64,000 nt of DNA from Candidatus Iainarchaeum sp. (GCA_016699555.1 CP064981.1:761603-825602); one strand, 5' to 3'. Positions 7,707-32,834 are shown, numbered from the stretch's first letter. Notes: generated by a model not told the origin, from the sequence alone. A program made the numbers and translations.

Positions 7707-7732
7707 GGCCTGTTTCGGCAGGCCGCCTCGAA
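7707..7732 (-). repeat. conserved hairpin element GGCCTGCCGAAACAGGCC with CGAGGC flank, copy C (reverse orientation)
   Basis: Near-identical to copies at 9392-9420 and 32805-32834; lies directly after nikR stop; followed by second hairpin CAGGTGC...GCACCTG. Confidence 0.7.
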
Positions 7733-7881
7733 ATCCAGGTGCCAATTTGATTAGCACCTGTCTGCTCATGACTACCTTTATATGTGCTTAGTAGCCATTT
7801 TTCATAGTCAATATTGGCCTACTGGACCATTGCAAGATGGTTCTAACGTAGTCCTTCGTATGATCGGGACGAAATCCGATT

Positions 7882-7965
7882 GCGGGGTTGGCAGAGTGGT
7901 CTATAGCGGCAGCCTGCTAAGCTGTTCTGGGAAACCAGGCGAGGGTTCGAATCCCTCACCCCGCG
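7882..7965 (+). tRNA. tRNA-Ser (anticodon GCU), class II with long variable arm
   Basis: Perfect 7-bp acceptor stem GCGGGGT/ACCCCGC, anticodon stem GCAGC/GCUGU, loop CUGCUAA (U33, GCU, A37), variable arm UUCUGGGAAACCAGGC, T-arm GAGGG-UUCGAAU-CCCUC, discriminator G; D-stem has one A-A mismatch; no encoded CCA. Confidence 0.75.
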
Positions 7966-7992
7966 TCCAATTTCGATTGGACCAACCGAGAA

Positions 7993-8049
7993 CAGGTATT
8001 GCAATGCAATACCTGATGGCTCCTTTCGCGCACCTTTTTCAAAGGCGCG
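7993..8049. terminator. two tandem hairpins between convergent tRNA-Ser and SET gene (CAGGTATTGC-AAT-GCAATACCTG and GCGCACCTTT-TTC-AAAGGCGCG)
   Basis: Perfect 10-bp stem with TATTGC/GCAATA core shared with hairpins at 32781, 36677; second hairpin followed by T-rich run. Confidence 0.5.
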
Positions 8050-8108
8050 TTTGTATCCCTCGCCCCGCGATTACTATTTCTTTTCAAACCAGCAAGCGAG
8101 CTTCGGGC

Positions 8109-8624
8109 TTACGAAAACATCTTGTCTTCCAATTTTTGTAGAATGTAGTCTTGGAGCGCTCCTGCTTTGTAATATTGCTTTTTGAGTTTGGGTTCCAACG
8201 AAGGAAACTGCCCTATGGTGCCACGACATTTTTTCGACCCGCAATTGCATTCCATTGCCCATTCTCGATAGCGCCCAAATTTCTCATGGGTCCACTCAGT
8301 CGTTGAATAATCAAATGTGAGTTCTTCGCCTTTCTTTACATCCCTGAGCGCAAATAGCTCATTCTCCTTTCTTATTCCACAATTGGGAGCACATGAATGA
8401 TTGATGAACACATAAGGTGCTGCAAGATCGATATATTTTTTGTCACCAATCTGCAAGGGATTGGATATCTTTTCTTTTCCGGATGCATATCTTCTCTTGA
8501 GCTCGTTCACCCCAATTCTTTCGCCGCGCATCAAACAAAGAGCTTCGCCCTTTTTTATGTTCTTGGAAGCAACAACCCCAGTTCCTTGAATGGCTGATTC
8601 AATTACTTGGATGTGATTAAACAT
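8109..8624 (-). CDS. SET domain protein-lysine methyltransferase
   Basis: 171 aa; SET signature ...NHSCAPNC... and ELTFDY, post-SET Cys cluster CNCGSKKCRG. Confidence 0.8.
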   Translation of the reverse strand: MFNHIQVIESAIQGTGVVASKNIKKGEALCLMRGERIGVNELKRRYASGKEKISNPLQIGDKKYIDLAAPYVFINHSCAPNCGIRKENELFALRDVKKGEELTFDYSTTEWTHEKFGRYREWAMECNCGSKKCRGTIGQFPSLEPKLKKQYYKAGALQDYILQKLEDKMFS

Positions 8625-8693
8625 AGGGAATAGACCAACGCCAAGGAATTTATATCTTGCCTAAAACCATTTCTTTGCAATACAATATCTGCG

Positions 8694-9131
8694 CTATTTG
8701 CAATACTCATCAAACGCAGCAGTGAGCTTCTGCGCCAATGCAGCAGGATCTCTTCCCTCAATATCGGAGCGCTGCAACGCAAAAACACATTTCCCGTCTT
8801 TCAGCAAAAAGATGGAAGGAGACGAAGGGGGAAATTCGGGAATGGCGGCTCGCGCGCGATGTGTGGCTTCTCGATCTACACCGGCGAAGACCGTAACGGC
8901 GTGCATGGGTAAGGGTTTGTGCTGCATCGCGAGCTTGACAGCGGGACGCGCGCAACCCGCACCGCAGCCGCAGACGGAATTGACCACGAGCAACATCGTG
9001 CCTTTTTGCGCTAGCGCTTGCTCGACTTCGGGAATGGTATTGAGAGGTTTGACGCCGATGGATTGGAGCTCCGCTTGCATGGGAGCGGTATATGCGGGAT
9101 CGTACATAGGGTGAAAGTGCATATGTATCAA
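8694..9131 (-). CDS. bacilliredoxin-like thiol-disulfide oxidoreductase (DUF1094/YphP-YqiW family, CGC motif)
   Basis: 145 aa; ...LLVVNSVCGCGAGCARPAV...VTVFAGVD.EAT.RAR....PSSPSI.LLKDGK... aligns closely with Bacillus BrxA/BrxB. Confidence 0.7.
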   Translation of the reverse strand: MIHMHFHPMYDPAYTAPMQAELQSIGVKPLNTIPEVEQALAQKGTMLLVVNSVCGCGAGCARPAVKLAMQHKPLPMHAVTVFAGVDREATHRARAAIPEFPPSSPSIFLLKDGKCVFALQRSDIEGRDPAALAQKLTAAFDEYCK

Positions 9132-9171
9132 TTGAGTTGATCATTTATTAGGGGAATGCTAAAACGCAGCG

Positions 9172-9333
9172 TTATTCATCCAATAAGGACGGGCACACGC
9201 GCAACACGATCTTGCGCTGCTCTTCTTCTTTCATGGTGGACCAGCGCGCAATCTCATCGGTGGTGCGCCCGCAGCCCGTGCAGATCGTACCATCGAGGAT
9301 GCAGATGTTATTGCAAGGAGAAGGGACGGACAT
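9172..9333 (-). CDS. small Cys-rich protein, DUF1289-like (not in >=60 aa ORF track)
   Basis: 53 aa: MSVPSPCNNICILDGTICTGCGRTTDEIARWSTMKEEEQRKIVLRVCPSLLDE; SPC-x3-C...C-x2-CGRT..EI..W pattern of DUF1289. Confidence 0.5.
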   Translation of the reverse strand: MSVPSPCNNICILDGTICTGCGRTTDEIARWSTMKEEEQRKIVLRVCPSLLDE

Positions 9334-9367
9334 GACTATGATTTAGTCAGAAAAGTTAATTAGCCAT

Positions 9368-9420
9368 TGGGTGTCGCGAAGCGATACCCATTCTCGAGGC
9401 GGCCTGCCGAAACAGGCCTA
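9368..9420 (+). repeat. composite hairpin element copy A: TGGGTGTCGC-GAA-GCGATACCCA followed by TTCTCGAGGCGGCCTGCCGAAACAGGCCTA
   Basis: 28-30 nt core identical (1 mismatch) to 32805-32834 and reverse-complement of 7707-7732; sits at 3' end of gene 9418-9978 (minus). Confidence 0.7.
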
Positions 9421-9978
9421 GAACTTCCAATTCCAGTCGTGCTGGTGCTTGAAGAAGAGATATGCGAGGTGGATCCAGGAAAGCACGAATGGAAAAATCA
9501 AGAACGAAATGCTGGGACCGATCAACGTGCTCGCAGAGGTTTGGACGTTCTCGGCGACGAAGAATGTAATCACCGTATTCGCGTAAGCGGGGGAAGGGAC
9601 CGCATCCACTGCCTGCAGTATTTGGACAATAGGGAATACGGGAGAAAATGTAAGCAAAACGCTAATCAGACTGGTGAAAAAAATAGCGATGGTGAGGGCA
9701 TTTTTTTGGATGTACACGTTTCCGAGCCCGGGCAATAAGAGATTGGAGAAAATAGTAACGAAAATGGATTTCTGTCCCGCATTCTTTTGCATCTTGCGCG
9801 CGTTCGATTGGATGGCTTTCCAGTCTTTCTTGACATTGATGGGGCGCTCTTTCTGCGTGACGGGCCAGATCTTGCTGCGCTTGAAGTGCCCCAACTCATT
9901 GACGTCAAAATCTTCCGGATCAAACGTCTGGGCCTGTGCCAATTTGCGTTTTGCATTTCTCTTCGAAGAGCGCTTCAT
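9418..9978 (-). CDS. integral membrane protein, hypothetical (TM2-like GxG..Y motif)
   Basis: Basic N-terminus then 3-4 TM helices; LLLPGLGNVYIQKN resembles TM2-domain small membrane proteins. Confidence 0.45.
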   Translation of the reverse strand: MKRSSKRNAKRKLAQAQTFDPEDFDVNELGHFKRSKIWPVTQKERPINVKKDWKAIQSNARKMQKNAGQKSIFVTIFSNLLLPGLGNVYIQKNALTIAIFFTSLISVLLTFSPVFPIVQILQAVDAVPSPAYANTVITFFVAENVQTSASTLIGPSISFLIFPFVLSWIHLAYLFFKHQHDWNWKF

Positions 9979-10143
9979 TCTCCAGAGCAGAAAATCAGAC
10001 TATATAAAAGAGGCATTCGCATGCGCGAAAGTAAATGAAAAAGTGGAAACGAACAAAATCAGCGCAATAAATCCATTCGGGCCGGAAAACAACTTGCGTC
10101 CGGAAAACTCATTGGGTTACTGCTTACAATTGGACACTAGAAA

Positions 10144-10380
10144 CTAGTATCCGGTTGTTTGCTTCTGCTGCATGTAGCAATCTCGGCAGAACACAGGTCT
10201 TCCGGCTTTGGGCTGGAAAGGAACTTGTGTGGCTTTACCGCACTTACTGCATGTTGCATCGTACATCTGGCGAGGACCTTGTTGAAAGTCTCCGCGAGGT
10301 TGGAATGCCATTCTTTTCGACTCCTTTTTTACTAATCTCAGACCTTTTGAGGGGCCTAAGTAACCAATTATCCGTTCCAA
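10144..10380 (-). CDS. small zinc-ribbon protein (CxxC...CxxC)
   Basis: 78 aa; CSKCGKATQVPFQPKAGRPVFCRDC. Confidence 0.5.
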   Translation of the reverse strand: MERIIGYLGPSKGLRLVKKESKRMAFQPRGDFQQGPRQMYDATCSKCGKATQVPFQPKAGRPVFCRDCYMQQKQTTGY

Positions 10381-10453
10381 GGAGTTATAAAGTCATGGAT
10401 GGAAAGACGCCAAAAAGGCCAATTCAGGCTTAAAATGCTATAAAAACCCATGA

Positions 10454-11161
10454 TTAGGCTTTTTGGAAAAGTGCATCGACCCAAGTCACGATGATGATTC
10501 TGCCTTGGATGTCACTTATGGAAAATAACCCCAGGGATCCGCTGTCCGTACTGGCATTACGGTTATCCCCCATCACCACTACTTTTCCGCTTGGAACCCT
10601 GAATTGAGTGGTACGCAGCTGCTCCATGAGCACGTCATAATGCTGCGAATCCGCACGCTCAAGGAGGTAGGGTTCGAGGAGGAGGGAGTCATTCAGGTAT
10701 AGCTGTCCCTCCCGCAACTCCAGCTTGTCCCCCGGCAATGCAATCACGCGTTTGGCCAGGGGGATTACAGAGGCAACCTGCACGATATCCCCATGCGCAA
10801 GAGGATTATCAGCATAATAGCCCGCGATGAAGAGCACGCGCTGATTGCTTTGAAGCGTGGGATTCATGGAATTGCCCACGACTTGGACAAACGAACACGC
10901 GTGAGAATGGCAATACTTCTGATATATCGCGGGAAAGAACTCCAAACCGGCTTTGGATTCGAGGAAATAAATGCCCCCAATCGCTGCAACGAGGAGAATG
11001 AGCAAGGCCGCTCCTACTCCCAACACCCATCCATGCGATTGCATGTGCAACAGAACATGAGCGGCAATAAAAATGAAGGGATAAAAGAAAGTGCACGCAG
11101 GCGAACGCGCAGAAAAGAGAACATGGGGCATCAACGCAGTTGATACCCTTTCTCGCTCCAA
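10454..11161 (-). CDS. signal peptidase I (S26 family, Ser-Lys type)
   Basis: Box B VVGNSMNPTL, box D AKRVIALPGD, box E GDNRNASTDS; N-terminal TM anchors; true start may be an internal Met. Confidence 0.75.
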   Translation of the reverse strand: MERERVSTALMPHVLFSARSPACTFFYPFIFIAAHVLLHMQSHGWVLGVGAALLILLVAAIGGIYFLESKAGLEFFPAIYQKYCHSHACSFVQVVGNSMNPTLQSNQRVLFIAGYYADNPLAHGDIVQVASVIPLAKRVIALPGDKLELREGQLYLNDSLLLEPYLLERADSQHYDVLMEQLRTTQFRVPSGKVVVMGDNRNASTDSGSLGLFSISDIQGRIIIVTWVDALFQKA

Positions 11162-11178
11162 ACCGCCGAAACGGTTTA

Positions 11179-11262
11179 TGCACGAGGGCGGATTCGAACC
11201 GCCGAAGACACTAAGTCACCAGATCTTGAGTCTGGCGCGTTTGACCGCTTCGCTACCCGTGC
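11179..11262 (-). tRNA. tRNA-Leu (anticodon CAA), class II
   Basis: Acceptor GCACGGG/CUCGUGC + A73, D-stem GCG/CGC, anticodon stem CCAGA/UCUGG, loop CUCAAGA, variable stem-loop GAC..GUC, T-arm GGCGG-UUCGAAU-CCGCC. Confidence 0.85.
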
Positions 11263-11293
11263 ATGGGCGATTTCGTCCGCCCGATACGAGATC

Positions 11294-11347
11294 CAGGTGC
11301 CGCGTATGGCGACACCTGTCCTTTGATGAACCTTTATCTAAAGGTTC
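11294..11347. repeat. hairpin pair upstream of tRNA-Leu: CAGGTGCCGC-GTATG-GCGACACCTG then TTTGATGAACCTTT-ATC-TAAAGGTTC
   Basis: Second hairpin with TTTGATGA prefix recurs at 36784-36811; first resembles CAGGTGC hairpin at 7740. Confidence 0.5.
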
Positions 11348-11392
11348 AGGAGAAACCATAAAAAGGCATGGATTTGGCCCCTTGCGCAGTTA

Positions 11393-12133
11393 ATGGCTTT
11401 TATTCCAAAATACCCCCATTACGGCATGGCAGTCTATGGAAAAGGGAGGAAAGGAAGGCCCATCCCGCAAGCGCGTGCGCTAGGACAAGTGTTTCGGTCG
11501 TGGCACCGAGCTCCGATCATTGAGCCCTCTGCTAATCACCGTCGCTTTGAAGCCATCGGCGCGGTGTTCTCTCACCAACTACGCTTTCCCATCGGAAAAT
11601 GGATCAACAAGCGCTTCCGCAAAACAGGCAAACCCGCAGTCGTGGTGGAATGGGGCTGCCGCTCGGGGCAGGCAATCGATTATCTCACGCACCAATATGG
11701 GGATCGCATCCAGGCATATGGGTATTCCATACAGAGCCACCCCGAATGGGAACACAACAGCCGCGTGAAATTCATCTGGAACGACCCCTTCAAGATGTTG
11801 CGCTATTTCAAGAAAGGAAGCGTCGACCTCATCTATTCGCGATTTGGATTATTCCAATTTTTTCCTCAAATGCATGGGACACGCGCCTCCGATCCAGTAA
11901 CGGCCAATCCATCCCTTGCGATCGATTATATCCACCGCCTCGGGGAACGATTGCGCGTGGGAGGGGTATTAGTGACGCACGTCAATGATGGATTAATCGG
12001 CCCCCTCTCGCTTTTCAACTGGAAAGCCGCCGGGTTCAAGTTCCGGTTACATGGGCGATTCAATTATGTGAATCCAAGAACGAGGAGCGCTAACAGTGTT
12101 CCCCCGCGCATCACGCTCGAGCGAGTGGCTTGA
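11393..12133 (+). CDS. SAM-dependent methyltransferase-like protein, hypothetical
   Basis: VVEWGCRSGQAIDYL resembles MTase motif I; first ~10 codons overlap the hairpin repeat so real start may be 11426. Confidence 0.4.
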   Translation: MAFIPKYPHYGMAVYGKGRKGRPIPQARALGQVFRSWHRAPIIEPSANHRRFEAIGAVFSHQLRFPIGKWINKRFRKTGKPAVVVEWGCRSGQAIDYLTHQYGDRIQAYGYSIQSHPEWEHNSRVKFIWNDPFKMLRYFKKGSVDLIYSRFGLFQFFPQMHGTRASDPVTANPSLAIDYIHRLGERLRVGGVLVTHVNDGLIGPLSLFNWKAAGFKFRLHGRFNYVNPRTRSANSVPPRITLERVA

Positions 12134-12862
12134 TCACGCATGGGCATTGAGCCAGTCCAAAACTTCTTGCTTGAGCGTTTGCCGTGCATCGAACATCCGC
12201 GCGCCATGACCGGCATCTTCGATCGTCAGCAATTGCTTGTCCGCGATGGTAGCGCTAGTGAACAGCGTCTGGCTGCTCTGTGCAGCATAATGATCCTCTT
12301 GGCTCGCCACAATCAGCATGGGACAACGCGTGGATTGGGCCGCTGCTAATGTAGTAAGACCGCGATAGTCCAACCCCGGAGAGAGTAGCACCACTCCTGC
12401 GCAACTGCTTTCATCCGCCCCATAATTGAGCGCGGCATTTGCACCGATGCTGGCCCCTACCACGAGCACTTTCTCCACATTCAAATAATCCCGCGCCGCT
12501 TGGATGTCTCCCGCGACCAATTGCCAATCGGCAGGAGTGAAATCGAGATAGGTCGCATTCCCGGGGCGCGATTCGCCATGACCGCGCATGTCGAACGATA
12601 AGACGCTAAACCCATTCGCAAAAGCAAACGCGGCAAAATCATCCAAGGAATGGCGATCGCTCCCGAGCTCGTGCACTAGAATGAGCGGTGGGCGCGTCGA
12701 ATCGGGATTATCCCAGCGCGTCCCGATGAGCTTGAATCCATCCGCTCCGCCAAATTCCACTTGTACGCCTTGAAGCACATCCGCGTTCGTGGATGGGCGT
12801 GGAATTACACAACCGCTCAACACGAGCAACGCCAATAGACCGAGAACCAATACCTTACGCAT
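12134..12862 (-). CDS. secreted alpha/beta hydrolase fold lipoprotein
   Basis: Signal peptide + lipobox LSGC, HELGSDRHS, nucleophile elbow GASIG, C-terminal Asp/His region. Confidence 0.6.
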   Translation of the reverse strand: MRKVLVLGLLALLVLSGCVIPRPSTNADVLQGVQVEFGGADGFKLIGTRWDNPDSTRPPLILVHELGSDRHSLDDFAAFAFANGFSVLSFDMRGHGESRPGNATYLDFTPADWQLVAGDIQAARDYLNVEKVLVVGASIGANAALNYGADESSCAGVVLLSPGLDYRGLTTLAAAQSTRCPMLIVASQEDHYAAQSSQTLFTSATIADKQLLTIEDAGHGARMFDARQTLKQEVLDWLNAHA

Positions 12863-13241
12863 GGGTCTTTCGTCCCTCCAATAGTTTTCCGAGTTGCCCA
12901 CGCAGCGCGGGAGAGATGACGGAAATGCCTCCACTCATATTCTGCGCATGCGCAAATCCACGTTCGCGCAGGAATTGAGTCACACCCACACTGCGATTCC
13001 CGTGCGCGCAGAGAACAAGTAGTGGGTGCTCTTTCCCAAAGCGATCGAAATCGGAAGGTTTAGCAGTTGAAAGGGGAAGGGAAATGGAATGCGCGATATG
13101 CTCTTGCTCCCATTCCCAGGGCTCGCGGACATCCACCATCATCGCATGCGGATCGGACTGCAGCAGGGCAAGGGCTTGCTCGGGATTCAGGTGCATGGAT
13201 TGGAAACCATCTTTAGCAGCGACCATACAGCATTTCCCCAT
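12855..13241 (-). CDS. rhodanese-domain sulfurtransferase (single domain)
   Basis: Active-site loop CAHGNRS (Cys-x4-Arg); start at MGKCCM; 8-nt overlap with downstream hydrolase gene. Confidence 0.7.
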   Translation of the reverse strand: MGKCCMVAAKDGFQSMHLNPEQALALLQSDPHAMMVDVREPWEWEQEHIAHSISLPLSTAKPSDFDRFGKEHPLLVLCAHGNRSVGVTQFLRERGFAHAQNMSGGISVISPALRGQLGKLLEGRKTHA

Positions 13242-13280
13242 TCCGAGGAATTTAAAATGAGGTTTTGATTCCCTTAGCGT

Positions 13281-13946
13281 ATGACGGAAACCCCTGCCCA
13301 ACTCAAGGCGCGCTGGAAGAAAATAGAGCACCAACTCGAAAAGCTCTATGCCAACCCCAAAGTAGGGCTGGACTTCCAAAATCCCTTCCAATTGACCATT
13401 GCCACGATCCTGAGCGCCCAATGCACGGACATACGCGTGAACATGGTGACGAAAGAATTATTCAAGAAATACAAGCAACCCGAAGACTTCTTACGCGTTC
13501 CCGGAAAGGAACTGCAGCAGGACATCCGTTCAACGGGCTTCTACAAGAACAAAGCCAAGAACATCCGCGGGTGCTGCCAGCGACTCATTGAGGTGTTCGG
13601 GGGAAAAGTACCCCAAACCATGGAAGAACTTATTACACTCCCGGGCGTTGGAAGGAAGACCGCCAACATCGTATTATGGGCAGGCTATGGAAAACTCGAA
13701 GGAATCGCCGTCGACACGCACGTGTTCCGGGTTTCACGACGACTGGGATTGGCAAAGGGAAACAATCCCCAAAAAGTAGAACAAGAACTCGTGCAGATCG
13801 TGGACAAACCCAAATGGGGAACGTTCACGGACGTACTCATCTGGCATGGCCGAAAAGTATGCGACGCGCGCCTGCCCAAGTGCACGCCATGCGTCCTATT
13901 CAAAAACAAATTATGCCCCCGAATAGGAGTAGTCAAGCATGCGTAG
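13281..13946 (+). CDS. nth: endonuclease III (HhH-GPD, 4Fe-4S)
   Basis: HhH LPGVGRKTANIVL, catalytic region, C-terminal C-x6-C-x2-C-x5-C (CDARLPKCTPCVLFKNKLC). Confidence 0.85.
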   Translation: MTETPAQLKARWKKIEHQLEKLYANPKVGLDFQNPFQLTIATILSAQCTDIRVNMVTKELFKKYKQPEDFLRVPGKELQQDIRSTGFYKNKAKNIRGCCQRLIEVFGGKVPQTMEELITLPGVGRKTANIVLWAGYGKLEGIAVDTHVFRVSRRLGLAKGNNPQKVEQELVQIVDKPKWGTFTDVLIWHGRKVCDARLPKCTPCVLFKNKLCPRIGVVKHA

Positions 13947-14562
13947 CCTGATTTATGTCATGGGATTGCTTTCCATCCTCCTCTTCCTGAGCGGATGCAT
14001 CACCACCGAGAATCAAGAATTCCACGCGCATGCGGATTTTGCACTATTCATCGACGGACAGCGCATGGACTTCAATCGCGCCGCATTCATGAGCGATGCG
14101 AATACGCAATTGGATGGGTTGACGCACTTGCATGATTTCAACCCTTTTGTCATCCACTACCACGCGCAAAACATCCCATTGAAGCGCTTCTTCAATAGCT
14201 TGGACATGAAATGGCAAGACGATTGCTTTACTATTGGGAACCAAACCCCATTGTGCAACGATACTGCAACGGGAAAGAGTTGGAAGCTCTATGTGAACGG
14301 CCAACTCAATCCCCAGAATGAAAATTATATCGCCAAGGACTTGGATCGCATCCTGATCGCGTATGGGAATAACACCCCCCAGGAATTGCACGACCTCTTG
14401 AATGCCGTTACGGATGTGGCATGCATCCAATCCAGCAAATGCCCCGAGCGTGGTACACCGACTAATGAGACATGCACGACTGCGGGGGGATGCTCCCTCG
14501 ACTTGAACCATCTCGCCGCAAAGACATGCATCGGCGTCGGATCCATCAAGTATTGCTTTTGA
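13939..14562 (+). CDS. secreted Cys-rich lipoprotein, hypothetical
   Basis: Signal peptide + lipobox LSGC; 12 Cys. Confidence 0.45.
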   Translation: MRSLIYVMGLLSILLFLSGCITTENQEFHAHADFALFIDGQRMDFNRAAFMSDANTQLDGLTHLHDFNPFVIHYHAQNIPLKRFFNSLDMKWQDDCFTIGNQTPLCNDTATGKSWKLYVNGQLNPQNENYIAKDLDRILIAYGNNTPQELHDLLNAVTDVACIQSSKCPERGTPTNETCTTAGGCSLDLNHLAAKTCIGVGSIKYCF

Positions 14563-14601
14563 CCCACGCCCTTAAAGATTCCGCGTACCGGAAAAAATCC
14601 T

Positions 14602-15126
14602 ATGGAAGTACGCGGCCGCATCCAAGACATCGCTGAGACTCATCGCCTCATCGCCGAGTTGGGGGGAATCAAACTCAACACCTACGCATTCGAGGATCGC
14701 ATCTATTTTTTGCCCGGAACCACTTCACTCGAAAAAGGATACGTGCGCATCCGCTCTCCCCCGGGATATGACAATTCCCAGCGCTTTCAGATCACCAAGA
14801 AAATAACACAGGATGGGCAGCGACTGGAAGTGTATCGCAGCTTTGCCAGCGACCTCGAACGCGCAAAAGCCAAGATCGCAGGGCACTGGATCGCATGCAT
14901 CATCGCCCGAAAAGGAACGCAATACCGACTAGGCAATGGGCTGATGTATGTGGAAGAAATCGAAGAATTCGGGAATAGCATCGAAGCCCTTTACTCCAGC
15001 GAAGTCGAAGGCAGGGAATGGCTGCACCAACTGAATGCCACGGAAATATCCATGCACTCCATGCCCTTGCAATTCATGATCCATAAAAATATGCCCAAGC
15101 ATGAGCCCGCCCCAAAACCTAATTAA
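14602..15126 (+). CDS. CYTH-like domain protein (triphosphate tunnel metalloenzyme family), tentative
   Basis: N-terminal EVRGRI...E pattern reminiscent of CYTH ExExK start; 174 aa; weak. Confidence 0.35.
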   Translation: MEVRGRIQDIAETHRLIAELGGIKLNTYAFEDRIYFLPGTTSLEKGYVRIRSPPGYDNSQRFQITKKITQDGQRLEVYRSFASDLERAKAKIAGHWIACIIARKGTQYRLGNGLMYVEEIEEFGNSIEALYSSEVEGREWLHQLNATEISMHSMPLQFMIHKNMPKHEPAPKPN

Positions 15127-15148
15127 GCCCTCCAACCCCTTTTTGCGC

Positions 15149-16873
15149 ATGGCCATCAATAAAGAAATTGCAGCCATCTTCTATGCCATCGCCGATCTGC
15201 TCGACTTGCAAGGAGTCGAATGGAAACCCATTGCATTCCGCAAAGCCGCACGGACGCTGGAGAATTATTCCGAGCCCATGGACAAAATCGTCAAAGCAAA
15301 AGGAATCAAAGGCGTGATGGAACTTCCCGGAATCGGAGAAGGGATTGGAAAAAAGATCGTGCAGTACGTCGAAGAAGGAAAGATCGATGAATATGAAGAG
15401 CTGAAGAAAGAGATTCCTGCCGGCGTACGCCTCATGCTGAATGTCCCCGGAATGGGCCCCAAAAAAGCCGCTCGCCTCTACAAGGAACTCAAAATCGACT
15501 CGCTCGAAAAACTCGAGGCATTCGCCAAAGAAGGAAAAATACGCGCACTGAGCGGATTCGGAGAAAAGAGCGAGCAAGATATCCTCATGGGATTGGAGCT
15601 GGTCAAGAAAGGACAAGAACGCAAGCTCATGGGAATCATCCTCCCCTACGCGCGCGAGCTCGCAAAAAAAATCAATTCCATCCCGGGAGTGCAACGCGTC
15701 GAACTCGCGGGGAGCCTGCGCCGACGCAGAGAGACGGTCAAGGACATCGACATCCTCGCGCTCGCAAAAGATGGAAAGAAAGTCATGGATGCATTCGTGA
15801 AGCTGCCCGATGTTGAGAAAGTGGTCTCCAAAGGAGACACCAAAACAGCCGTCATCCTCAAGATGGGACTGAATTGCGACCTACGCGTGCTTTCGCCGGA
15901 AGTCTATGGCGCGGGACTGGTGCACTTCACGGGAAGCAAAGAACACAACGTCGCATTGCGCATGCTGGCCATCAAGAAAGGGATGAAATTGGACGAGTAT
16001 GGGCTCTTCGACAACAAAAGCGGCAAAAACCTCGCGTGCAAGAACGAAGAAGACGTCTATGCGCGCTTGGGCATGCAATACATCCCTCCCGAGATGCGCG
16101 AGAATACTGGCGAGATCGAGCTCGCGCAACAGAAAAAAATACCCGAGCTCATCGGCTATGACGCCATCCATGGGGATTTGCACACCCACACGAATTGGAG
16201 CGATGGCGCCAACACCACGGAAGAAATGGTCGTGCGCGCCGTAGAACTCGGATACGACTACTATGCGATTACCGACCACTCCAAGAGCGACGTCATCGCC
16301 AATGGACTGAATGAAAAACGCGTCAAAGAACACTTCAAGGAAATTGACGCGCTGCAAAAGAAATTCCCACAGATCCAATTGCTGAAAGGGGCGGAAGTAG
16401 CCATCTTGAGCAACGGGAAATTGGACTATGGCGCTGAAACCCTCAAGGAGATGGACATCGTCGTCGGAAGCATCCACTCCGGGTTCAAGACCCCACCCAA
16501 AGAGATGACCAAGCGCCTGCTCACGGCGATGGAAAATGAATACCTCACCTTTCTCGGACACCCTACCGGTAGGCTCCTGAACCAGCGCAATCCCTATGAG
16601 TATGACATCGAAAAAATACTCGAAACCGCCGCATCCAACCGCATCGCCGTCGAAGTGAATGCGTTTCCCTCGCGCATGGACTTCGACGCCGATCACATCC
16701 GGCTGGCGCTGCAAAAGAAAGTCAAGCTCGTCATCAATACCGACTCCCACTCCACCCAAAATCTGGACTTCATGGAGTTCGGCATCGCACAAGCGCGCAG
16801 GGGATGGGCGAAAAAAGAGGACGTGCTCAATGCGCTGCCCTGGAAAGCATTCCAAAGAGAAGTATTGCGTTAG
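15149..16873 (+). CDS. polX: DNA polymerase X family protein with C-terminal PHP phosphoesterase domain
   Basis: Pol beta-like HhH and nucleotidyltransferase (GSLRRRRETVKDIDIL) regions, C-terminal PHP HGDLHTHTNWSDG; start at MAINKEIAAIF. Confidence 0.85.
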   Translation: MAINKEIAAIFYAIADLLDLQGVEWKPIAFRKAARTLENYSEPMDKIVKAKGIKGVMELPGIGEGIGKKIVQYVEEGKIDEYEELKKEIPAGVRLMLNVPGMGPKKAARLYKELKIDSLEKLEAFAKEGKIRALSGFGEKSEQDILMGLELVKKGQERKLMGIILPYARELAKKINSIPGVQRVELAGSLRRRRETVKDIDILALAKDGKKVMDAFVKLPDVEKVVSKGDTKTAVILKMGLNCDLRVLSPEVYGAGLVHFTGSKEHNVALRMLAIKKGMKLDEYGLFDNKSGKNLACKNEEDVYARLGMQYIPPEMRENTGEIELAQQKKIPELIGYDAIHGDLHTHTNWSDGANTTEEMVVRAVELGYDYYAITDHSKSDVIANGLNEKRVKEHFKEIDALQKKFPQIQLLKGAEVAILSNGKLDYGAETLKEMDIVVGSIHSGFKTPPKEMTKRLLTAMENEYLTFLGHPTGRLLNQRNPYEYDIEKILETAASNRIAVEVNAFPSRMDFDADHIRLALQKKVKLVINTDSHSTQNLDFMEFGIAQARRGWAKKEDVLNALPWKAFQREVLR

Positions 16874-23139: not shown

Positions 23140-23156
23140 TATAAATGGCCGCTATC

Positions 23157-25552: not shown

Positions 25553-25565
25553 TGCCAGCGTACGC

Positions 25566-26210: not shown

Positions 26211-26226
26211 CTCCCAAAAAATACGC

Positions 26227-26871
26227 TCATTCCAATATGCTTAATGCGGTCTTTGCTTGTTTTAAGGCTGACTGCGGCGAGCGATTGGCGTTGATGTAGA
26301 AGACAGGATAACGTTGCGCGGCCCACTCTACCAGGGGAAGGGTTTCCCTCTGGTAAACGCGAAAACGATCGTGTAATACCCCTTTGGTATCGTCTTTCCG
26401 CCGGATGAGTTTTCCACCGCACGCGTTGCAAATCCCTTTCTTTTTGGGCTTGATCTGCAACCCATAGATGCGATGGCACTTCTCGCATTGCACGCGTGCA
26501 CGAATGCGCTCCCAACTCACTTTTTCCGTCGCATCGAAGAAAAGGAATGCCGTGAAAGAGGACTTGAATTTCTTCAATACTTTTTCCATCGCACGCGCCT
26601 GAGAAACATTTCGGGGCGTTCCATCGAGGAGTACTTTTTTGTTGTGATGGGCTCGGAAGAAATCATCTTCCAGATGCGCAACCATCGCATTCGGGACGAG
26701 TTTCCCTCGCTTCAGGAATGCGGCCAATTTCTTCGCACGCGGGCTTTTTCCCGCAGCCATATCACGCAGGGCTTGTCCGGCCGAAAAGACGATCCAACCA
26801 TGGTGGTCCACCAGCGTCTGGGCAAACGTTCCTTTTCCGGAAGCAGGAGGACCCAGCAGGACGATGATCAT
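26227..26871 (-). CDS. adk: adenylate kinase with Zn-binding LID (bacterial/long type)
   Basis: GPPASGKGT P-loop, LID CEKC...CNAC. Confidence 0.9.
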   Translation of the reverse strand: MIIVLLGPPASGKGTFAQTLVDHHGWIVFSAGQALRDMAAGKSPRAKKLAAFLKRGKLVPNAMVAHLEDDFFRAHHNKKVLLDGTPRNVSQARAMEKVLKKFKSSFTAFLFFDATEKVSWERIRARVQCEKCHRIYGLQIKPKKKGICNACGGKLIRRKDDTKGVLHDRFRVYQRETLPLVEWAAQRYPVFYINANRSPQSALKQAKTALSILE

Positions 26872-26904
26872 GCTCTGACGAAATGATTTGAGTTAAAAAA
26901 GACC

Positions 26905-27768: not shown

Positions 27769-27811
27769 ACTACAGAGATTCGGGATTTTCCTTATAAGGC
27801 TCTGCCTGGGC

Positions 27812-28684: not shown

Positions 28685-28732
28685 CCGTGCGCATGAAGCA
28701 CCTTTATTAGCCCTTTTTGGGGATAATCAGCT

Positions 28733-29491
28733 ATGTTTCGCCTCATCGGAATAGGACTCAACCCGCGCCAGCTCACATTGGAAGCGCTCCATGCCATCCA
28801 GGCCAGCGACAAGGTGTACGTGGAGAATTATACCTCCAAGTTCGCAGAAGGGGATTTGAAAAAACTCGAAACCATCATCCAAAAACCCATCCACTTGCTC
28901 CAGCGCAAGGATGTGGAGGATTATTCGGAGTCCTTCTTGAGCGAAGCCAAAACGCACTCCATTTCATTATTGATTTTCGGCAACCCGCTCACGGCGACGA
29001 CGCACATCTCATTGCTGGAATACTGCAAGCAAGAAAAGATCCATTACGAAGTCATTCCGGGCATTTCCATCTTCAATTATCGCGGGATATGCGGATTGGA
29101 TGAGTATCGTTTTGGTCGCACGACCACGTTCGTCTTCCCACGCGAAGGCGATGAGCCGCTTTCCCCATTCGATGTGATCGTGAAAAACAAAGCGATGGGG
29201 TTGCACACCCACTGCCTGTTCGATCTGCATCCGGACGCGCAACGCTTCATGAGCGTGGACGAAGCCATCGGGTTCATTCGCCGCGCCGCCGTGGCGCGTG
29301 AAGTGGACATCCATGATTGGGTTGGTGTAGGATTAGGGGGCATGGGGCACAGCAAGCAACTCGTACGAGCAGGGAAACTCGACGCGATCGAGAAACACGC
29401 CTGGAATGTCTTTCCGCAAAGCCTCATCATCTGCGGCCACTTGCAGGAGTATGAACACGAGGCATTGCAAAAACTGGGAGGGATGAAATGA
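28733..29491 (+). CDS. dph5: diphthine synthase
   Basis: MFRLIGIGLNPRQLTLEALHAIQASDKVYVENYTS aligns with archaeal DphB N-terminus; tetrapyrrole-methylase fold; ATGA overlap with next gene. Confidence 0.85.
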   Translation: MFRLIGIGLNPRQLTLEALHAIQASDKVYVENYTSKFAEGDLKKLETIIQKPIHLLQRKDVEDYSESFLSEAKTHSISLLIFGNPLTATTHISLLEYCKQEKIHYEVIPGISIFNYRGICGLDEYRFGRTTTFVFPREGDEPLSPFDVIVKNKAMGLHTHCLFDLHPDAQRFMSVDEAIGFIRRAAVAREVDIHDWVGVGLGGMGHSKQLVRAGKLDAIEKHAWNVFPQSLIICGHLQEYEHEALQKLGGMK

Positions 29492-29838
29492 CTCCAAAAA
29501 AAGTTGCTGCGAAGAAAAACAAAACCGCAAAACCGAAAGCCAACCAAAACCTCCAGCACGCACTCGAGGCAAAAGTCGCACGCTACGAGACGCTCACAAA
29601 AAAAGGACTGGAAAAGATCTCCATCCTCGCGCGCAAGGGGACGAAAGAATATGCAGTGGCGATGGACTATGTCTCCATGGCCCAGAATTACTTCAACGAT
29701 GCCAAGCACTTCCGCGCGCAAGGGGAATTGCTCATCGCGCTGGCCGCATTCTCATACGCTCATGCCTGGTTGGACGCGGGCGTGCGTGCAGGATTGTTCG
29801 ACGGGAAAAACGACGACCAACTATTCACCTTGCCTTGA
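29488..29838 (+). CDS. DUF357-like archaeal protein
   Basis: Basic N-terminus, ...FSYAHAWLDAGVRAGL motif of DUF357. Confidence 0.4.
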   Translation: MTPKKVAAKKNKTAKPKANQNLQHALEAKVARYETLTKKGLEKISILARKGTKEYAVAMDYVSMAQNYFNDAKHFRAQGELLIALAAFSYAHAWLDAGVRAGLFDGKNDDQLFTLP

Positions 29839-29859
29839 CATGGAAACGACTGTGATCGC

Positions 29860-30339
29860 ATGCGCTACGCCGAAGGAGAAGAAAAAAACACATGCGAACG
29901 CTTCATCGCGCTCTCCGCAGAGATAGCCAAAAAATCCCATTGCCTGCGCTCGGGCTGCGGCAGTGTGATCGTTAAAGAGAATGAGATCATCGGCGCCGGG
30001 TTCAACTCGCTTCCGCTCAATGAAAAACCCACTTTCTGCATCAAGGACCAGCTCCCAAAGGATTTCAAATCCGACAAGACATGCTGCATTCATGCGGAGC
30101 AACGCGCCATCATGGAAGCGCTCGCCAAGCATGCGGACAAGATCAAGGGTTCACGTATCTACTTCGTGCGCGTCGATGAGCAGCACCGCCCCATTCCGGC
30201 GGGAAAACCCTACTGCACCATCTGCAGCAAATTCGCATTAGACACGGGGATCGCGGAGTTCGTGCTATGGCACAAAGAAGGCTATGCTGTCTATTCCACC
30301 GATGAATACAACCAGCTTTCCTTCGCTTATCGCGAGTAG
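29860..30339 (+). CDS. dCMP/cytidine deaminase family zinc enzyme
   Basis: HAEQRAI (H-A-E) and PC..C zinc motifs. Confidence 0.75.
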   Translation: MRYAEGEEKNTCERFIALSAEIAKKSHCLRSGCGSVIVKENEIIGAGFNSLPLNEKPTFCIKDQLPKDFKSDKTCCIHAEQRAIMEALAKHADKIKGSRIYFVRVDEQHRPIPAGKPYCTICSKFALDTGIAEFVLWHKEGYAVYSTDEYNQLSFAYRE

Positions 30340-30382
30340 CCCAAATACAAACCTAAAAAAACCCCTTTTCGTTCAATAGAGC

Positions 30383-30844
30383 ATGAAAGTCTACAAACGC
30401 AACCCCTTGGATATGGATTTAGCCGGGATTGAAGGGCTATTATTGCCCGCGCTCGGCGTGCTCATCCTGCTCTTCCTCGCATTCCTTTTCTTGGGAGGCA
30501 GCAGCCCCAATGTGGTCACTGCGCGCTTGGTGCAGAATCCCTTATCGCTTTCCGCCAACGACTCGACGGTGCTGCAAGTGCAAGTATCCAATCCCACCTC
30601 TCAAATGGCACAGGACATGATCGTACAAGTGACTGCGCCCAGCGCCCCGAAATTATCCATCACGCCCAAACGCCAAACCATCCCATTCCTCGGGAGCAAT
30701 GAAACGCGCACGCTCGAATTCCTGGTCTTGCCAGTGGATGCGGCCAGCGACCCCTTTACGCCCGGAAGCTATAGCATCACGATTTCGACGCAACTCCAAG
30801 GAGAACCCTACACGACGCAGGTGAAAGTGCAAGTGGTGAAGTAG
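30383..30844 (+). CDS. membrane-anchored protein with beta-sandwich (CARDB-like) domain, hypothetical
   Basis: N-terminal TM helix; TLEFLVLPVD...GSYSITIS pattern. Confidence 0.35.
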   Translation: MKVYKRNPLDMDLAGIEGLLLPALGVLILLFLAFLFLGGSSPNVVTARLVQNPLSLSANDSTVLQVQVSNPTSQMAQDMIVQVTAPSAPKLSITPKRQTIPFLGSNETRTLEFLVLPVDAASDPFTPGSYSITISTQLQGEPYTTQVKVQVVK

Positions 30845-30846
30845 CT

Positions 30847-31920
30847 ATGAAATCCGCATTCAACGACAACCTCTTCCAGCAAGAGTTCTTCGAACAGAAC
30901 AAGATCGATGCGCTCTACATCGTGTCGAATGAGCAATTGGTCGATCCCCTGCTCACGAAACTGACCGGCATCACCATGCTCAACTTCGGCTATCGCTTCT
31001 TGCAGACGGCGGAAAAGAACCTTCTCCTGTGTGGCCCGCTGGAAGCACGCAGCGTGGGAAAGCAATACCGAGGCAAGATGAAGACCGTGCGCTCGCGCAA
31101 GGACATCTTGAAGAACCTGCATTCATTTTTCCACAAAAAACGCGTGGGACTGAATCACGCCTACCTCACGGCGGGACAATTGCTCGCGCTCCAAGAAAAA
31201 TTCCCCAAAACAAAATTCATTGATGTGAGCAATGCCCTTTATCATTCGCGCGGGGTCAAGACCAAGGAAGAAATCAAGAAAATAAGCGAGGCCGCACGCA
31301 TCTCGCAAGAGGTATCGCATCAGTTTCCGGAATGGGTGCACAAGAACATCACCGAGCAACAACTGCTCGCGCGCATCAATTATGAGTTCGCCCGCAACGG
31401 GTGCGAAGAAGCCTTTCCAACGCTGGTGTGTTTTGGAGACAACGCGCGCGACATCCACCACTTCGTCTCCCACAAGAAATTGAAGAAGAATGAGACGATC
31501 CTCATCGACTTCGGGGCGAAATACCAAGGATATTGCTCCGACCTTTCTCGAACCATGCACTTCGGAAAAGCCGCGGAGCAAAAACATGCATTTTACCGGA
31601 AGACATTCGCCGCCCAAGAAGCGGGCATCGCGGAGCTCATCCCCGGAAACCCTTCCAAGAAAGCCCACTTGGCTGCGGAGAAAGTATTAGGGCACAAGAT
31701 CCCGCATGGACTCGGGCATGGAGTGGGACTGGAAACGCACGATTCCCCGGGCGTCATCTCTCCCTATCAGGAATGGAAAGTCATGCCCGGGATGGTACTG
31801 GCGGTAGAACCAGGATACTATGGCACAAGCGGAGGAATCCGCATCGAAGACAATATCGTTACGACTCCAAATGGCAATAAGCGCCTCAGCAAGGCCCCCA
31901 AGGAACTGCTCGAGATATAG
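30847..31920 (+). CDS. Xaa-Pro aminopeptidase / M24 family metallopeptidase
   Basis: pita-bread fold motifs ...DFG..Y.GYCSD..RT.., HGLGHGVGLETHD, GMV..VEPG.Y. Confidence 0.85.
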   Translation: MKSAFNDNLFQQEFFEQNKIDALYIVSNEQLVDPLLTKLTGITMLNFGYRFLQTAEKNLLLCGPLEARSVGKQYRGKMKTVRSRKDILKNLHSFFHKKRVGLNHAYLTAGQLLALQEKFPKTKFIDVSNALYHSRGVKTKEEIKKISEAARISQEVSHQFPEWVHKNITEQQLLARINYEFARNGCEEAFPTLVCFGDNARDIHHFVSHKKLKKNETILIDFGAKYQGYCSDLSRTMHFGKAAEQKHAFYRKTFAAQEAGIAELIPGNPSKKAHLAAEKVLGHKIPHGLGHGVGLETHDSPGVISPYQEWKVMPGMVLAVEPGYYGTSGGIRIEDNIVTTPNGNKRLSKAPKELLEI

Positions 31921-31967
31921 TTTCTTGCTCGGACGCTAGCCATATAATTCTGCTGAATCACACTCCT

Positions 31968-32765
31968 ATGATGGAACTCGAAGCCGCCAAGGAATCGCTG
32001 GATCGCGCGCTGGCGCGGAAAGACCTCATCATGTTGATCGGGGACTGTCGCGTGCTCTATCACGGAAGGGCTGCCAGCAATCTCCCGCTCGGCTCGCGCC
32101 TGCTGCTCATCAAGGGAGATGGGAGCTTCGCCATCCACCAGAACAAGTTACTACGACCCACCAATTACCTCATGGCCAACTCTTGGTCCACAAAAATGGA
32201 GGACGGAAAGCTCGTGATCGCGGCCACGAAACGAACGCCAAAGGAATCGCTCACGGTGACGCTGGAAAAGGTAGAGATGCTCAACCTCCACACGATGGAA
32301 GACAAGAAGAGCGACTTCAAGTTAGTCGGAAGCGAACGCGAACTATCCAATCAGCTGATGGATGATCTCGAAGTGCTGGAGAAAGGACTCAAACCCCTCA
32401 AACAAGAATCGCATCTCCGCAAGGGGATGATCGATATCCTTGCCGAGGATAAGGATGGCCACCTCGTCGTCATCGAATTGAAACGCAGGCAAGCCGATTA
32501 TGACTCGGTGATGCAGCTGCAGCGCTACGTGACGGAAGTCAAAAAGACCAAGGGAAGGACCACGCGCGGCATCTTGGTGGCGCCAGAAATACGCAAGACC
32601 GCGATGGAATTGCTGAAGAACAATGGATTGGAATTCCGTTCCTACCAATTCGACGTCTCACAACCCAAGGCAACGATTGCGGGAATTGAAAAGAAACAAA
32701 GAACTATTTTCGAAGCGTTCGATGAAAATACAATTACTGCAAAGAAAAAGGAAACAAAAAAATAA
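31968..32765 (+). CDS. nucS: endonuclease NucS/EndoMS
   Basis: N-terminal dimerization domain (GDCRVLYHGRA...LLLIKGDGSFAIHQN) and C-terminal RecB-like nuclease (D...ELK). Confidence 0.85.
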   Translation: MMELEAAKESLDRALARKDLIMLIGDCRVLYHGRAASNLPLGSRLLLIKGDGSFAIHQNKLLRPTNYLMANSWSTKMEDGKLVIAATKRTPKESLTVTLEKVEMLNLHTMEDKKSDFKLVGSERELSNQLMDDLEVLEKGLKPLKQESHLRKGMIDILAEDKDGHLVVIELKRRQADYDSVMQLQRYVTEVKKTKGRTTRGILVAPEIRKTAMELLKNNGLEFRSYQFDVSQPKATIAGIEKKQRTIFEAFDENTITAKKKETKK

Positions 32766-32780
32766 AAAGAAAAAAACAAG

Positions 32781-32834
32781 GGGTTATTGCAACGCAATAA
32801 CCCGTTCTCGAGGCAGCCTGCCGAAACAGGCCTA
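32781..32834 (+). repeat. composite hairpin element copy B: GGGTTATTGC-AAC-GCAATAACCC followed by TTCTCGAGGCAGCCTGCCGAAACAGGCCTA
   Basis: Between convergent nucS and membrane-protein gene; core matches 9392-9420 and 7707-7732. Confidence 0.7.

Follow-up and report, generated by a model that had tools for sequence, protein, structure and literature searches.

Why does one short hairpin recur, nearly unchanged, behind several unrelated genes of an archaeon? This question is raised by a 64,000-nt stretch of the genome of Candidatus Iainarchaeum sp. (GCA_016699555.1, CP064981.1:761603-825602), which we call the window and whose positions are counted from its first nucleotide. An earlier note on the window had described a conserved 28-30 nt hairpin element at the 3' ends of three genes, and had proposed that it could be a REP- or MITE-like family (REP, repetitive extragenic palindromic; MITE, miniature transposable element with inverted repeats), a protein-binding termination element or a small RNA family. 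The element is indeed conserved, but what had been described is merely the linker and second hairpin of a unit of about 51 nt. Besides this larger unit, our analysis goes beyond the earlier note in finding diverged copies that flank both tRNA genes of the window, and in finding that sequence conservation is confined to the linker and second hairpin. With a probability of roughly 0.5, we favour the explanation that the element is a lineage-specific, duplicative REP-like or double-hairpin repeat that is kept at transcript ends and probably aids 3'-end formation or stability. To our knowledge, hardly any work has been done on non-coding repeats or transcript-end signals in DPANN archaea.

Structure of the element

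Pattern matches compared with shuffled sequence bore out three near-identical hairpins at the sites that had been reported, here named copies A, B and C. A degenerate 30-mer matched exactly at 9391-9420(+) (copy B) and 32805-32834(+) (copy C), with 0 matches expected (100 shuffles). The 18-nt hairpin GGCCTGCCGAAACAGGCC was present at 7707-7724(-) (copy A) and 9401-9418(+), with 0.06 matches expected by chance, and carries one mismatch (AGCCTG...) at 32815-32832(+). The full 30-mer is confined to copies B and C; copy A, which reads ATTTCGAGGCGGCCTGCCGAAACAGGCC, has only the 25-nt core TCGAGGCRGCCTGCCGAAACAGGCC in common with them, its flank being ATTTCGAGGC where copy B has TTCTCGAGGC. GGCCTG-CCGAAA-CAGGCC is intact in copies A and B but not in copy C. 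A second, different hairpin precedes each copy (9368-9390, 32781-32803, and 7736-7760 on the minus strand); it had been called perfect, but contains one G.T pair in two of the three. Read in gene sense, all three copies have the same order: stop codon, GGCCTG-TTTCGG-CAGGCY, GCCTCGA(G)AA and a variable hairpin.

The complete unit consists of hairpin 1 (a 10-bp stem of free sequence), a single-stranded linker of TTCTCG plus 4 nt, and hairpin 2 (a 6-bp stem with CGAAA in the loop). Each hairpin spans 18-25 nt, and the linker and hairpin 2 together form a conserved 25-28-mer. The forward consensus is YRGGT-RYYGC-loop-GCRRY-ACCYR, TTCTCG plus 4 nt, a 6-bp stem, CGAAA and the closing stem.

On both strands, folding predicts the two hairpins (z about -3 to -4). 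In the 19-copy alignment described below, pairing is kept in 96.3% of cells (74% when shuffled) and double-sided changes occur in 13 of the 16 pairs. The covariation score is 0.653, compared with 0.22 for shuffled alignments and 0.04-0.09 for slid partners, in an alignment that had been fitted to the covariance model. Little or no variation is seen in the unpaired linker core (T-CG) and the loop CGAAA, while the stems vary. Every hairpin 2 carries a UUUCG loop when read in gene sense, for which ViennaRNA usually predicts a UUCG tetraloop on a 7-bp stem. A pseudoknot between the TTCTCG linker and the CGAAA loop was considered and is excluded by geometry, with a connecting loop of 0-2 nt.

Distribution among related genomes

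A descriptor scan returned 14 matches compared with 0-1 in 20 shuffles. A covariance model, R1, was then seeded with five hand-chosen copies of equal length. Across 220 kb of sequence drawn from five related genomes of Candidatus Iainarchaeum, R1 found 19 distinct full-length copies (E<1e-5), and all 19 are intergenic. Seven copies lie in the 64 kb of the window, 1.6-23 kb apart. Graded syntenic loci (L numbers below) were collected via homologues of NikR and of the membrane protein at site C. Copies are confined to genomes in which the site-C membrane protein is at least 74% or NikR at least 77% identical, and R1 found nothing significant (best E=0.37) over 100 kb made up of the distant syntenic loci L008, L010, L012, L020 and L021, plus L005.

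Exact-pattern scans covered genome, metagenome and viral collections. Elsewhere, the exact core was found in only three places: L001 and L002, both in the metagenome-assembled genome (MAG) 'uncultured archaeon SRP278252_co2_833' (CAYZNV01), and L003 (a Hainich groundwater contig). In the whole of CAYZNV01, these two are the only instances of the exact 24-base core. None of these copies is at a gene 3' end; they overlap the 5' end of tRNA-Val (L001), or lie between the divergent MCM and methionyl-tRNA synthetase (MetRS) genes (L002) or the convergent enolase and P1 genes (L003). The link to gene 3' ends drawn in the earlier note is real but not exclusive: related copies also lie upstream of tRNAs and between divergent genes. 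The viral collection held no exact match, and BLAST against plasmids and phages gave chance matches only. In Rfam 15, the whole window at the gathering threshold yielded its two tRNAs only, and positions 7600-9500 at E up to 10 yielded nothing on copy A or B.

Gain, loss and homogenization

Copies come and go between close relatives. Copy A is absent in L013 and L014, where NikR is 95% identical to that of the window. In these two loci, tRNA-Ser and its downstream copy are identical to the window, and the tRNA-Ser leader copy has completely different stems with GGCCTACT, ACGTAGTCCTTCG and ACGAAAT unchanged. In L007, only 57 nt separate nikR from tRNA-Ser, which has copies on neither side and is preceded, about 26 nt upstream, by a TATA box; this locus also lacks an 87-nt insertion found downstream of tRNA-Leu in the window. 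Relative to L007, the copies upstream of tRNA-Ser and downstream of tRNA-Leu occupy their sites exactly at the ends of the tRNAs. Site B of L010 has no room for a copy.

Other copies have been retained with altered stems. Site B is kept in L007 (neighbour protein 85% identical) with compensated stems, namely a different inner hairpin 1 and a hairpin 2 stem of GTCCG.../...CGGAC. Site C has orthologues in L015, L016, L017, L018 and L019, again with differing stems. A site after the MopE-like gene holds copies in L016 and L018, and its counterpart in the window is a decayed copy at 36648-36698. In L018 (7343-7713), site C has grown into a 350-nt array with three tandem UUUCG-loop hairpins whose stems differ, two CGAGAA plus hairpin 1 units, several TATA-loop hairpins and one further full copy. 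We conclude that the modules multiply and shuffle locally.

Within a genome, the linker and hairpin 2 are 90-100% identical across sites, while orthologous sites of different genomes share only 66-83%; hairpin 1 shows the opposite pattern. Within-genome cases are copies A, B and C of the window, sites B and C of SRR23592399, which are identical, and site C compared with the post-MopE copy of CAYZNV01 (93%). Likeness of whole elements at non-orthologous sites also crosses genomes, as in window copy C and the post-MopE copy of MAG CBCLPU01 (96%/90%), and in window copy B and the MCM/MetRS copy of CAYZNV01 (83%/96%). This is concerted evolution, for which gene conversion or re-insertion is needed, or else selection by a reader that co-evolves.

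Placement at transcript ends

In gene sense, the order runs from the stop codon or tRNA 3' end through a UUUCG-loop hairpin 2', CGAGAA and hairpin 1' to T-rich sequence. Four families (the 186-aa, 169-aa, MopE-like and, in L001, 64-aa proteins) have the start of hairpin 2' at -1 to 2 nt from their stop codon, and three tRNAs have it 0-1 nt after their 3' end. The orientation is specific in the two unambiguous co-directional protein contexts (copy B and L001 2150-2201) and in the three tRNA trailers. In the 25 nt past hairpin 1', the mean T fraction is 0.47 and the mean longest T-run 4.2, compared with 0.26 and 2.5 on the other side; T-runs of at least 5 follow hairpin 1' in 8 of the 19 copies, and several copies have none. 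A termination role or a protein-binding site, as suggested in the earlier note, is plausible.

The gene positions that had been given for the three copies needed only refinement. Copies B and C each overlap by 1 nt the TAG stop of a membrane gene (9418-9420 for gene 9418-9978(-), 32832-32834 for gene 32832-33341(-)), and copy A begins 33 nt past the nikR stop, with another hairpin (7672-7697) intervening. Copy B is not in a convergent setting: it stands between the membrane gene and a 53-aa DUF1289 gene (9172-9333(-)), and on its gene-sense strand it is followed by a TATA-like box, the DUF1289 gene and a disulphide-isomerase gene. Copy C takes up the 66-nt interval from the NucS stop (32765) to that of its membrane gene, and a long T-tract follows it in the sense of the membrane gene.

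Several observations concern these neighbours. The DUF1289 gene directly downstream of copy B (Pfam E=2e-15) was hidden in a simple ORF list and appears leaderless, with a TAATTAAC box about 25 nt upstream of its ATG; the order membrane protein, DUF1289, disulphide isomerase is also kept in L010. The T-tract after copy C is the complement of the A-rich strand that encodes the Lys-rich C-terminal tail of NucS (KKKETKK; window 32720-32780), and this overlap is repeated in L015 and L016. The four families with a stop-abutting copy are all membrane or secreted proteins (9418-9978(-), 32832-33341(-), 33316-35934(+) and L001 1955-2149(+)). One is MopE-like; Pfam assigns no family to the other three. 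As a crude baseline, 25 of the 69 window ORFs (36%) have a hydrophobic segment, and the numbers are too small to judge.

Elements around tRNA genes

Both tRNA genes of the window (Ser and Leu) have diverged copies on each side (Table 1). Each of these copies is oriented towards its tRNA, with hairpin 2 lying 0-2 nt from the mature end. Only 1 nt lies between the tRNA-Ser leader copy and the start of tRNA-Ser (7882), and hairpin 2' of the tRNA-Ser downstream copy takes in the discriminator base. The 13-mer ACGTAGTCCTTCG recurs only upstream of tRNA-Ser (L013/L014) and tRNA-Val (L001), which defines a leader subtype. The tRNA-Leu of L007 retains an orthologous two-hairpin leader with entirely different stems. 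The tRNA-Leu downstream copy is within the 87-nt insertion (11092-11178), which ends in a decayed 15-nt copy of the tRNA-Leu 3' end (11092-11106). More generally, direct repeats of the tRNA's own 3' end, degenerate or exact, are found 66-91 nt downstream of tRNA-Ser (7951-7965 and 8055-8069), tRNA-Leu (3' end at about 11179-11200, repeat at 11092-11106) and the tRNA-Val of L001 (1690-1704 and 1784-1798), and each pair encloses a double-hairpin copy. These repeats resemble integrase attachment-site duplications, but the enclosed DNA is tiny.

Table 1. Double-hairpin copies and associated hairpins of the window
Feature	Position	Strand	Composition	R1 score (bits)
Copy A	7707-7760	-	plus strand (nikR sense): hairpin 2' 7707-7724, linker 7725-7735, hairpin 1' 7736-7760	
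Copy B	9368-9418	+ (gene sense minus)	hairpin 1 9368-9390, linker TTCTCGAGGC 9391-9400, hairpin 2 GGCCTG-CCGAAA-CAGGCC 9401-9418	76.8 (E=2.5e-17)
Copy C	32781-32832	+	hairpin 1 32781-32803, linker 32804-32814, hairpin 2 32815-32832	
tRNA-Ser leader copy	7816-7880	+	GGCCTACT, hairpin 1 7824-7843, linker TAACGTAGTCCTTCGTATG, hairpin 2 ATCGG-GACGAAAT-CCGAT 7863-7880	
tRNA-Ser downstream copy	7965-8015	-	plus strand: hairpin 2' GTCCAAT-TTCG-ATTGGAC 7965-7982, linker CAACCGAGAA, hairpin 1' 7993-8015	67.9
tRNA-Leu upstream copy	11265-11318	- (tRNA minus)	hairpin 1, linker GATCTCGTATC, hairpin 2 GGGCG-GACGAAAT-CGCCC, AT, tRNA	33.1
tRNA-Leu downstream copy	11125-11177	+	tRNA sense: hairpin 2' AAACCG-TTTCGG-CGGTTT, linker GGAGCGAGAA, hairpin 1'	34.3
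Decayed copy	36648-36698	-	41 nt after ORF 35950-36606 on plus strand; damaged hairpin 2' (GGCCAGTTCGGCTCGCC), linker GCTCCGAGGAA, hairpin 1' GGTTATTGC-AGC-GCAATAACC, then T5/T5	34.8
Extra hairpin	7672-7697	+	AAGGCTT-AGCCGAAATAGC-AAGCCTT, directly after nikR stop, then TTTTT	
Accessory hairpin	11327-11348	+	TGAACCT-TTATCTAA-AGGTTCA, TATA-like loop	
Variant module	36726-36811	+	TATA-like-loop hairpin ACCCAACTT-TAGATA-AAGTTGGGT, CAAAG, hairpin 1-type stem GAGTGGTTGC-AGCT-GCAACCACTC, GTTCTC, then TTTTGAT-GAACCTTT-TGTA-AAAGGTTC in the place of hairpin 2	

For the tRNA-Leu precursor, folding predicts that the linkers of leader and trailer pair with each other, with hairpin 2, the tRNA and hairpin 2' enclosed between them; no such leader-trailer pairing is predicted for the tRNA-Ser precursor. 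The tRNA-Ser of L007 (10388-10445) and the tRNA-Gly of L001 (2470-2505) have a TATA-like box about 26 nt upstream and no leader hairpins, which suggests leaderless tRNA transcription in these relatives, a mode described for Nanoarchaeum. If so, the inserted leader copies of the window would create a need for 5' processing. A promoter inside hairpin 2 of the abutting tRNAs was rejected, there being no TATA-like sequence at about -26.

The neighbourhood of nikR and tRNA-Ser is a hotspot of mobile DNA in relatives. A tyrosine-recombinase gene lies directly 3' of tRNA-Ser in L008 (10684-12006), while in L004 (CAYZNV01; 10529-16484) tRNA-Ser is missing and a Fic gene with TrbC-, TrbL- and TraC-like conjugation genes lies 3' of nikR. 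Near tRNA-Leu, the signal peptidase S26 gene (10454-11161(-)) has a longest-ORF start (TTG, 11161) that overlaps the downstream copy; its true start is probably further downstream because the Pfam domain starts at residue 89. A layout like that of the tRNA-flanking copies is seen in L002 (4040-4200), where a canonical copy and an inverted partial copy (hairpin 1, then CATTCTCG) are about 60 nt apart and the interval has the direct repeat ATACGTGG at its borders. In this segment, neither a tRNA nor any other known RNA was detected.

A second family of hairpins is found beside the main element. Its members are marked by loops that are T/A-rich and TATA-like (TTAGATAA, TTGTCTAA) and by a (T)TTGAT / ATCAAAGG motif in the flank, and occur in the window (11327-11348, 36726-36749 and 36792-36811) and in L003 (629-648), L018 (7450-7520) and L001 (1758-1776). 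The first of these, between the tRNA-Leu leader copy and a divergent gene starting at 11393, may be a palindromic bidirectional promoter. The architecture of the variant module is matched in L003 and upstream of tRNA-Leu. The extra hairpin behind nikR also has CCGAAA in its loop and faces hairpin 2 of copy A across 9 nt; the homologous stretch of L007 forms no hairpin and holds the TATA box of tRNA-Ser. The ORF that precedes the decayed copy (35950-36606(+)) lies between the MopE-like gene and enolase and encodes 218 aa with an Arg-rich C-terminus, for which Pfam gave no match; L015, L016 and L018 have only a short spacer at its position.

Relationship to known repeats

The REP elements of bacteria, together with bacterial interspersed mosaic elements (BIMEs) and REPINs, are short extragenic palindromic repeats (PMC2817692, PMC3733652, PMC3116915). 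Like REPs and BIMEs, the Iainarchaeum element lies mostly at gene 3' ends or between convergent genes, has a genome-specific consensus and occurs in inverted pairs and small arrays, and for both a part in termination and mRNA stabilisation has been proposed. It also agrees with REPs in length and site (a 20-40 nt extragenic imperfect palindrome). In contrast to REPs, it has two different hairpins joined by a conserved single-stranded linker and a DPANN archaeal host, and it conserves the loop and linker while its stems vary, whereas REPs conserve the stem. REPs are further recognised by a GTAG or CGTC tetranucleotide at the end of the palindrome (PMC3733652). The main type of our element has TTCTCG plus 4 nt before hairpin 2 and neither tetranucleotide at the stem foot, and GTAG is present in the tRNA-leader subtype only, 12-15 nt upstream of hairpin 2. 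REPs have a cognate REP-associated tyrosine transposase (RAYT; a Y1 transposase), whose gene REPs usually flank, and none was found in 50 window ORFs or in the Pfam lists of 17 loci. REPs reach hundreds per genome; the 64 kb of the window hold 7 copies of the element.

MITEs have been reported at high density in some DPANN genomes (PMC11602168). As with prokaryotic MITEs, the element is small, non-coding, intergenic and taxon-specific, and its presence varies between relatives; unlike them, it has no terminal inverted repeat (TIR), no target-site duplication (TSD) and no likeness to a transposase-bearing parent. At 51 nt, it is as short as the shortest typical MITEs or shorter. A REP/MITE-like family is the best supported of the three options in the earlier note: the element is dispersed, conserved in structure, limited to one lineage, homogenised within genomes and polymorphic in presence, but it fits the formal definition of neither class. 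A close parallel is found in the double-hairpin or repetitive hairpin-forming elements of mitochondria (PMC2800124), which likewise consist of one or two adjacent hairpins in intergenic DNA and beside tRNA genes, have invaded particular lineages with compact genomes and are thought to be mobile without a known enzyme. Those elements, however, are organellar and unrelated in sequence, and have not been reported flush with stop codons in one set orientation. Overall, the element looks like an archaeal counterpart of bacterial REPs or of these mitochondrial repeats rather than new machinery.

There is also a resemblance to bacterial intrinsic terminators, in which a stable, GC-rich hairpin lies directly downstream of the gene and leads straight into a U-tract; here T-rich sequence often follows, and a role in defining or protecting the 3' end is plausible. 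The 3' inverted repeats of chloroplasts likewise form a stable hairpin directly downstream of a gene. Neither of these has a sequence-conserved repeat or linker. Known archaeal termination relies on U-tracts and aCPSF1, not on hairpins (PMC8716108, PMC7515710).

Other classes were considered and rejected. Palindrome-associated elements derived from IS200/IS605 insert strand-specifically, in one orientation to replication, with tnpA or tnpB nearby or elsewhere in the genome. This class was discarded on finding window copies on both strands (3 plus and 4 minus in model orientation, within 30 kb), and neither tnpA nor tnpB was seen in the 50 window ORFs scanned. The copies are single and no contig had more than one match in the genome and metagenome scans, unlike CRISPR repeats, which form arrays of direct repeats at regular spacing. 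The core motifs of hammerhead and other ribozymes are absent and there is no Rfam match, and the tandem G.A motif of a K-turn or K-loop is missing. An archaeal selenocysteine insertion sequence (SECIS) or a diversity-generating retroelement (DGR) target hairpin, which the 3' position had brought to mind, was dismissed, with no similarity between gene-end sequences and no template repeat.

Discussion

In the explanation that we favour, the ~51-nt repeat would have originated in a single sub-clade of Candidatus Iainarchaeum (DPANN archaea) and multiplied there. Copies are gained and lost between close relatives, whole copies recur at unrelated sites, and gene conversion or re-insertion would keep the linker and hairpin 2 near-identical within a genome as orthologues diverge. 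Copies persist at transcript boundaries, where they may be tolerated or favoured, in a non-random orientation to transcription. In an mRNA or tRNA precursor, such a copy would form a UUCG-capped hairpin, a CGAGAA linker and a second hairpin ahead of a U-tract. The likeliest effect would be a stronger or more stable 3' end, together with insulation of genes that are closely packed. The family itself, its structure, distribution, positions and concerted evolution are shown here, whereas its mobility, its mode of spread and its role at the RNA level are inferred.

A number of results weigh against this explanation. On the side of mobility, TIRs are lacking, the ends of the element belonging to two different self-complementary hairpins that are not inverted copies of each other. 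Flanking TSDs, for which the earlier note had proposed a check, were looked for and not found at clean filled/empty pairs: there is none upstream of tRNA-Ser (L013 compared with L007), the insertion downstream of tRNA-Leu ends in the decayed tRNA-end copy with no short duplication, and no TA, TAA or CTAG duplications were found at the stop-codon copies. The search for enzymes drew on Pfam for 50 window ORFs and on the Pfam lists of 17 loci. No transposase, Y1/HUH protein or integrase was found among the window ORFs scanned or, in the locus gene tables, beside copies. On the side of RNA function, the alignment had been fitted to R1 before covariation was scored, and compensatory stems could reflect the propagation mechanism or hairpin-templated repair instead. 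The ratio of G.U to A.C pairs had at an early stage (7 to 1) seemed to favour the forward strand; it fell to 9 to 5 on the full alignment and does not identify the folding strand. Moreover, an abutting copy is present at only 2 of about 69 protein genes in the window, and L021, which has no element, already has the T-tract of site C, so the element is not a general or essential terminator. The 3-4 copies that lie upstream of tRNAs, opposite to transcription, are also unexplained by a pure 3'-end role.

Could the element instead be a non-mobile host signal, dedicated to termination, 3' processing or stability? Its CGAGAA linker and UUUCG loop would then be read at transcript ends by a lineage-specific RNA-binding protein or nuclease, and uniformity within a genome would reflect co-evolution. 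Invariant unpaired parts with variable stems, strict orientation to the upstream gene at a spacing of 0-2 nt and T-rich sequence after hairpin 1' are all consistent with this, and the linker plus hairpin 2 'alleles' (GGCCTG, GTCCG and GCCAG) differ by genome at the same sites, as co-evolution with a reader predicts. However, the copies are sporadic at window protein genes, are absent in relatives with the same genes and T-tracts, and are present as at least two alleles side by side in CAYZNV01. The tandem hairpin 2 arrays of L018 resemble repeat dynamics and not a tuned signal, and no candidate reader protein was identified; we consider a host signal unlikely. A bolder proposal combines both ideas. 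The element would be a new non-autonomous archaeal mobile element that inserts exactly at stop codons and at mature tRNA 5' and 3' ends, its linker and hairpin 2 co-evolving with a genome-specific reader (protein or RNA), so that it serves both mobility and RNA 3'-end formation or processing. We regard this as decidedly unlikely; if true, such exact insertion at the ends of mature tRNAs would suggest that the mechanism recognises RNA ends or DNA shaped like a tRNA.

The tRNA-flanking copies invite two further explanations. One is that the element is primarily a boundary element of tRNA genes, acting in the processing of pre-tRNA leaders and trailers, in the insulation of strongly transcribed tRNA genes or as a recombination target, with the copies at protein genes secondary. 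Both window tRNAs and the tRNA-Val of L001 are flanked on both sides with hairpin 2 0-2 nt from the mature ends, the leader motif ACGTAGTCCTTCG is found upstream of tRNAs only, the predicted tRNA-Leu precursor pairs its leader and trailer linkers, and the sites filled relative to L007 are filled exactly at tRNA ends. Yet the element is not needed for tRNA expression, since the tRNA-Ser of L007 and the tRNA-Gly of L001 have a TATA box and no copies; most canonical copies are away from tRNAs, and leader-trailer pairing is not predicted for the tRNA-Ser precursor. This leaves such a primary role improbable. The other is that the copies are remnants or satellites of integrative elements that target tRNAs, the unit being a mobile-element end moved in trans by a tyrosine recombinase. 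The three downstream copies that stand between a tRNA 3' end and a degenerate direct repeat of it, the integrase gene directly behind the same tRNA-Ser in L008 and the Fic and type IV secretion system genes of L004 would suit this origin. Only 66-91 nt separate the repeats, however, and in L007, where the element is missing, 8 nt (TCCCTCGC) some 25 nt downstream of tRNA-Ser weakly match part of the tRNA-Ser repeat. Copies at protein genes or upstream of tRNAs have no flanking repeats, and the viral, plasmid and phage searches were empty, which makes an integrative origin just as doubtful. As for the independently transcribed small RNAs proposed in the earlier note, or cis-antisense RNAs running into the 3' end of the neighbouring gene, the stable two-hairpin fold (z about -3 to -4), forward-strand G.U pairs in several copies of hairpin 1 and TATA-like sequences upstream of some copies are in keeping with them. 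At copy C, however, the element takes up the 66 nt that separate two stop codons and leaves no space for a promoter, which makes a small-RNA family unlikely. The TATA-like boxes elsewhere are so close that the start site would land inside hairpin 1, the strand test was not significant, there is no Rfam match and the orientation tracks the upstream gene. We would give this explanation scarcely any weight.

Implications

Taken as a repeat kept at transcript ends, the family is a compact case of hairpins lying flush against stop codons and tRNA ends. It combines rapid turnover between genomes that share 95% protein identity with concerted evolution at the level of modules, in which the loop and linker are homogenised within a genome and the stems are free to vary. 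In practical terms, gene boundaries in Iainarchaeia MAGs can be annotated better with the R1 covariance model. A dedicated reader protein, should there be one, would represent a new RNA- or DNA-recognition system. If the effect on 3' ends is real, this would be a selfish repeat that has been recruited as a terminator accessory in a streamlined archaeal genome.

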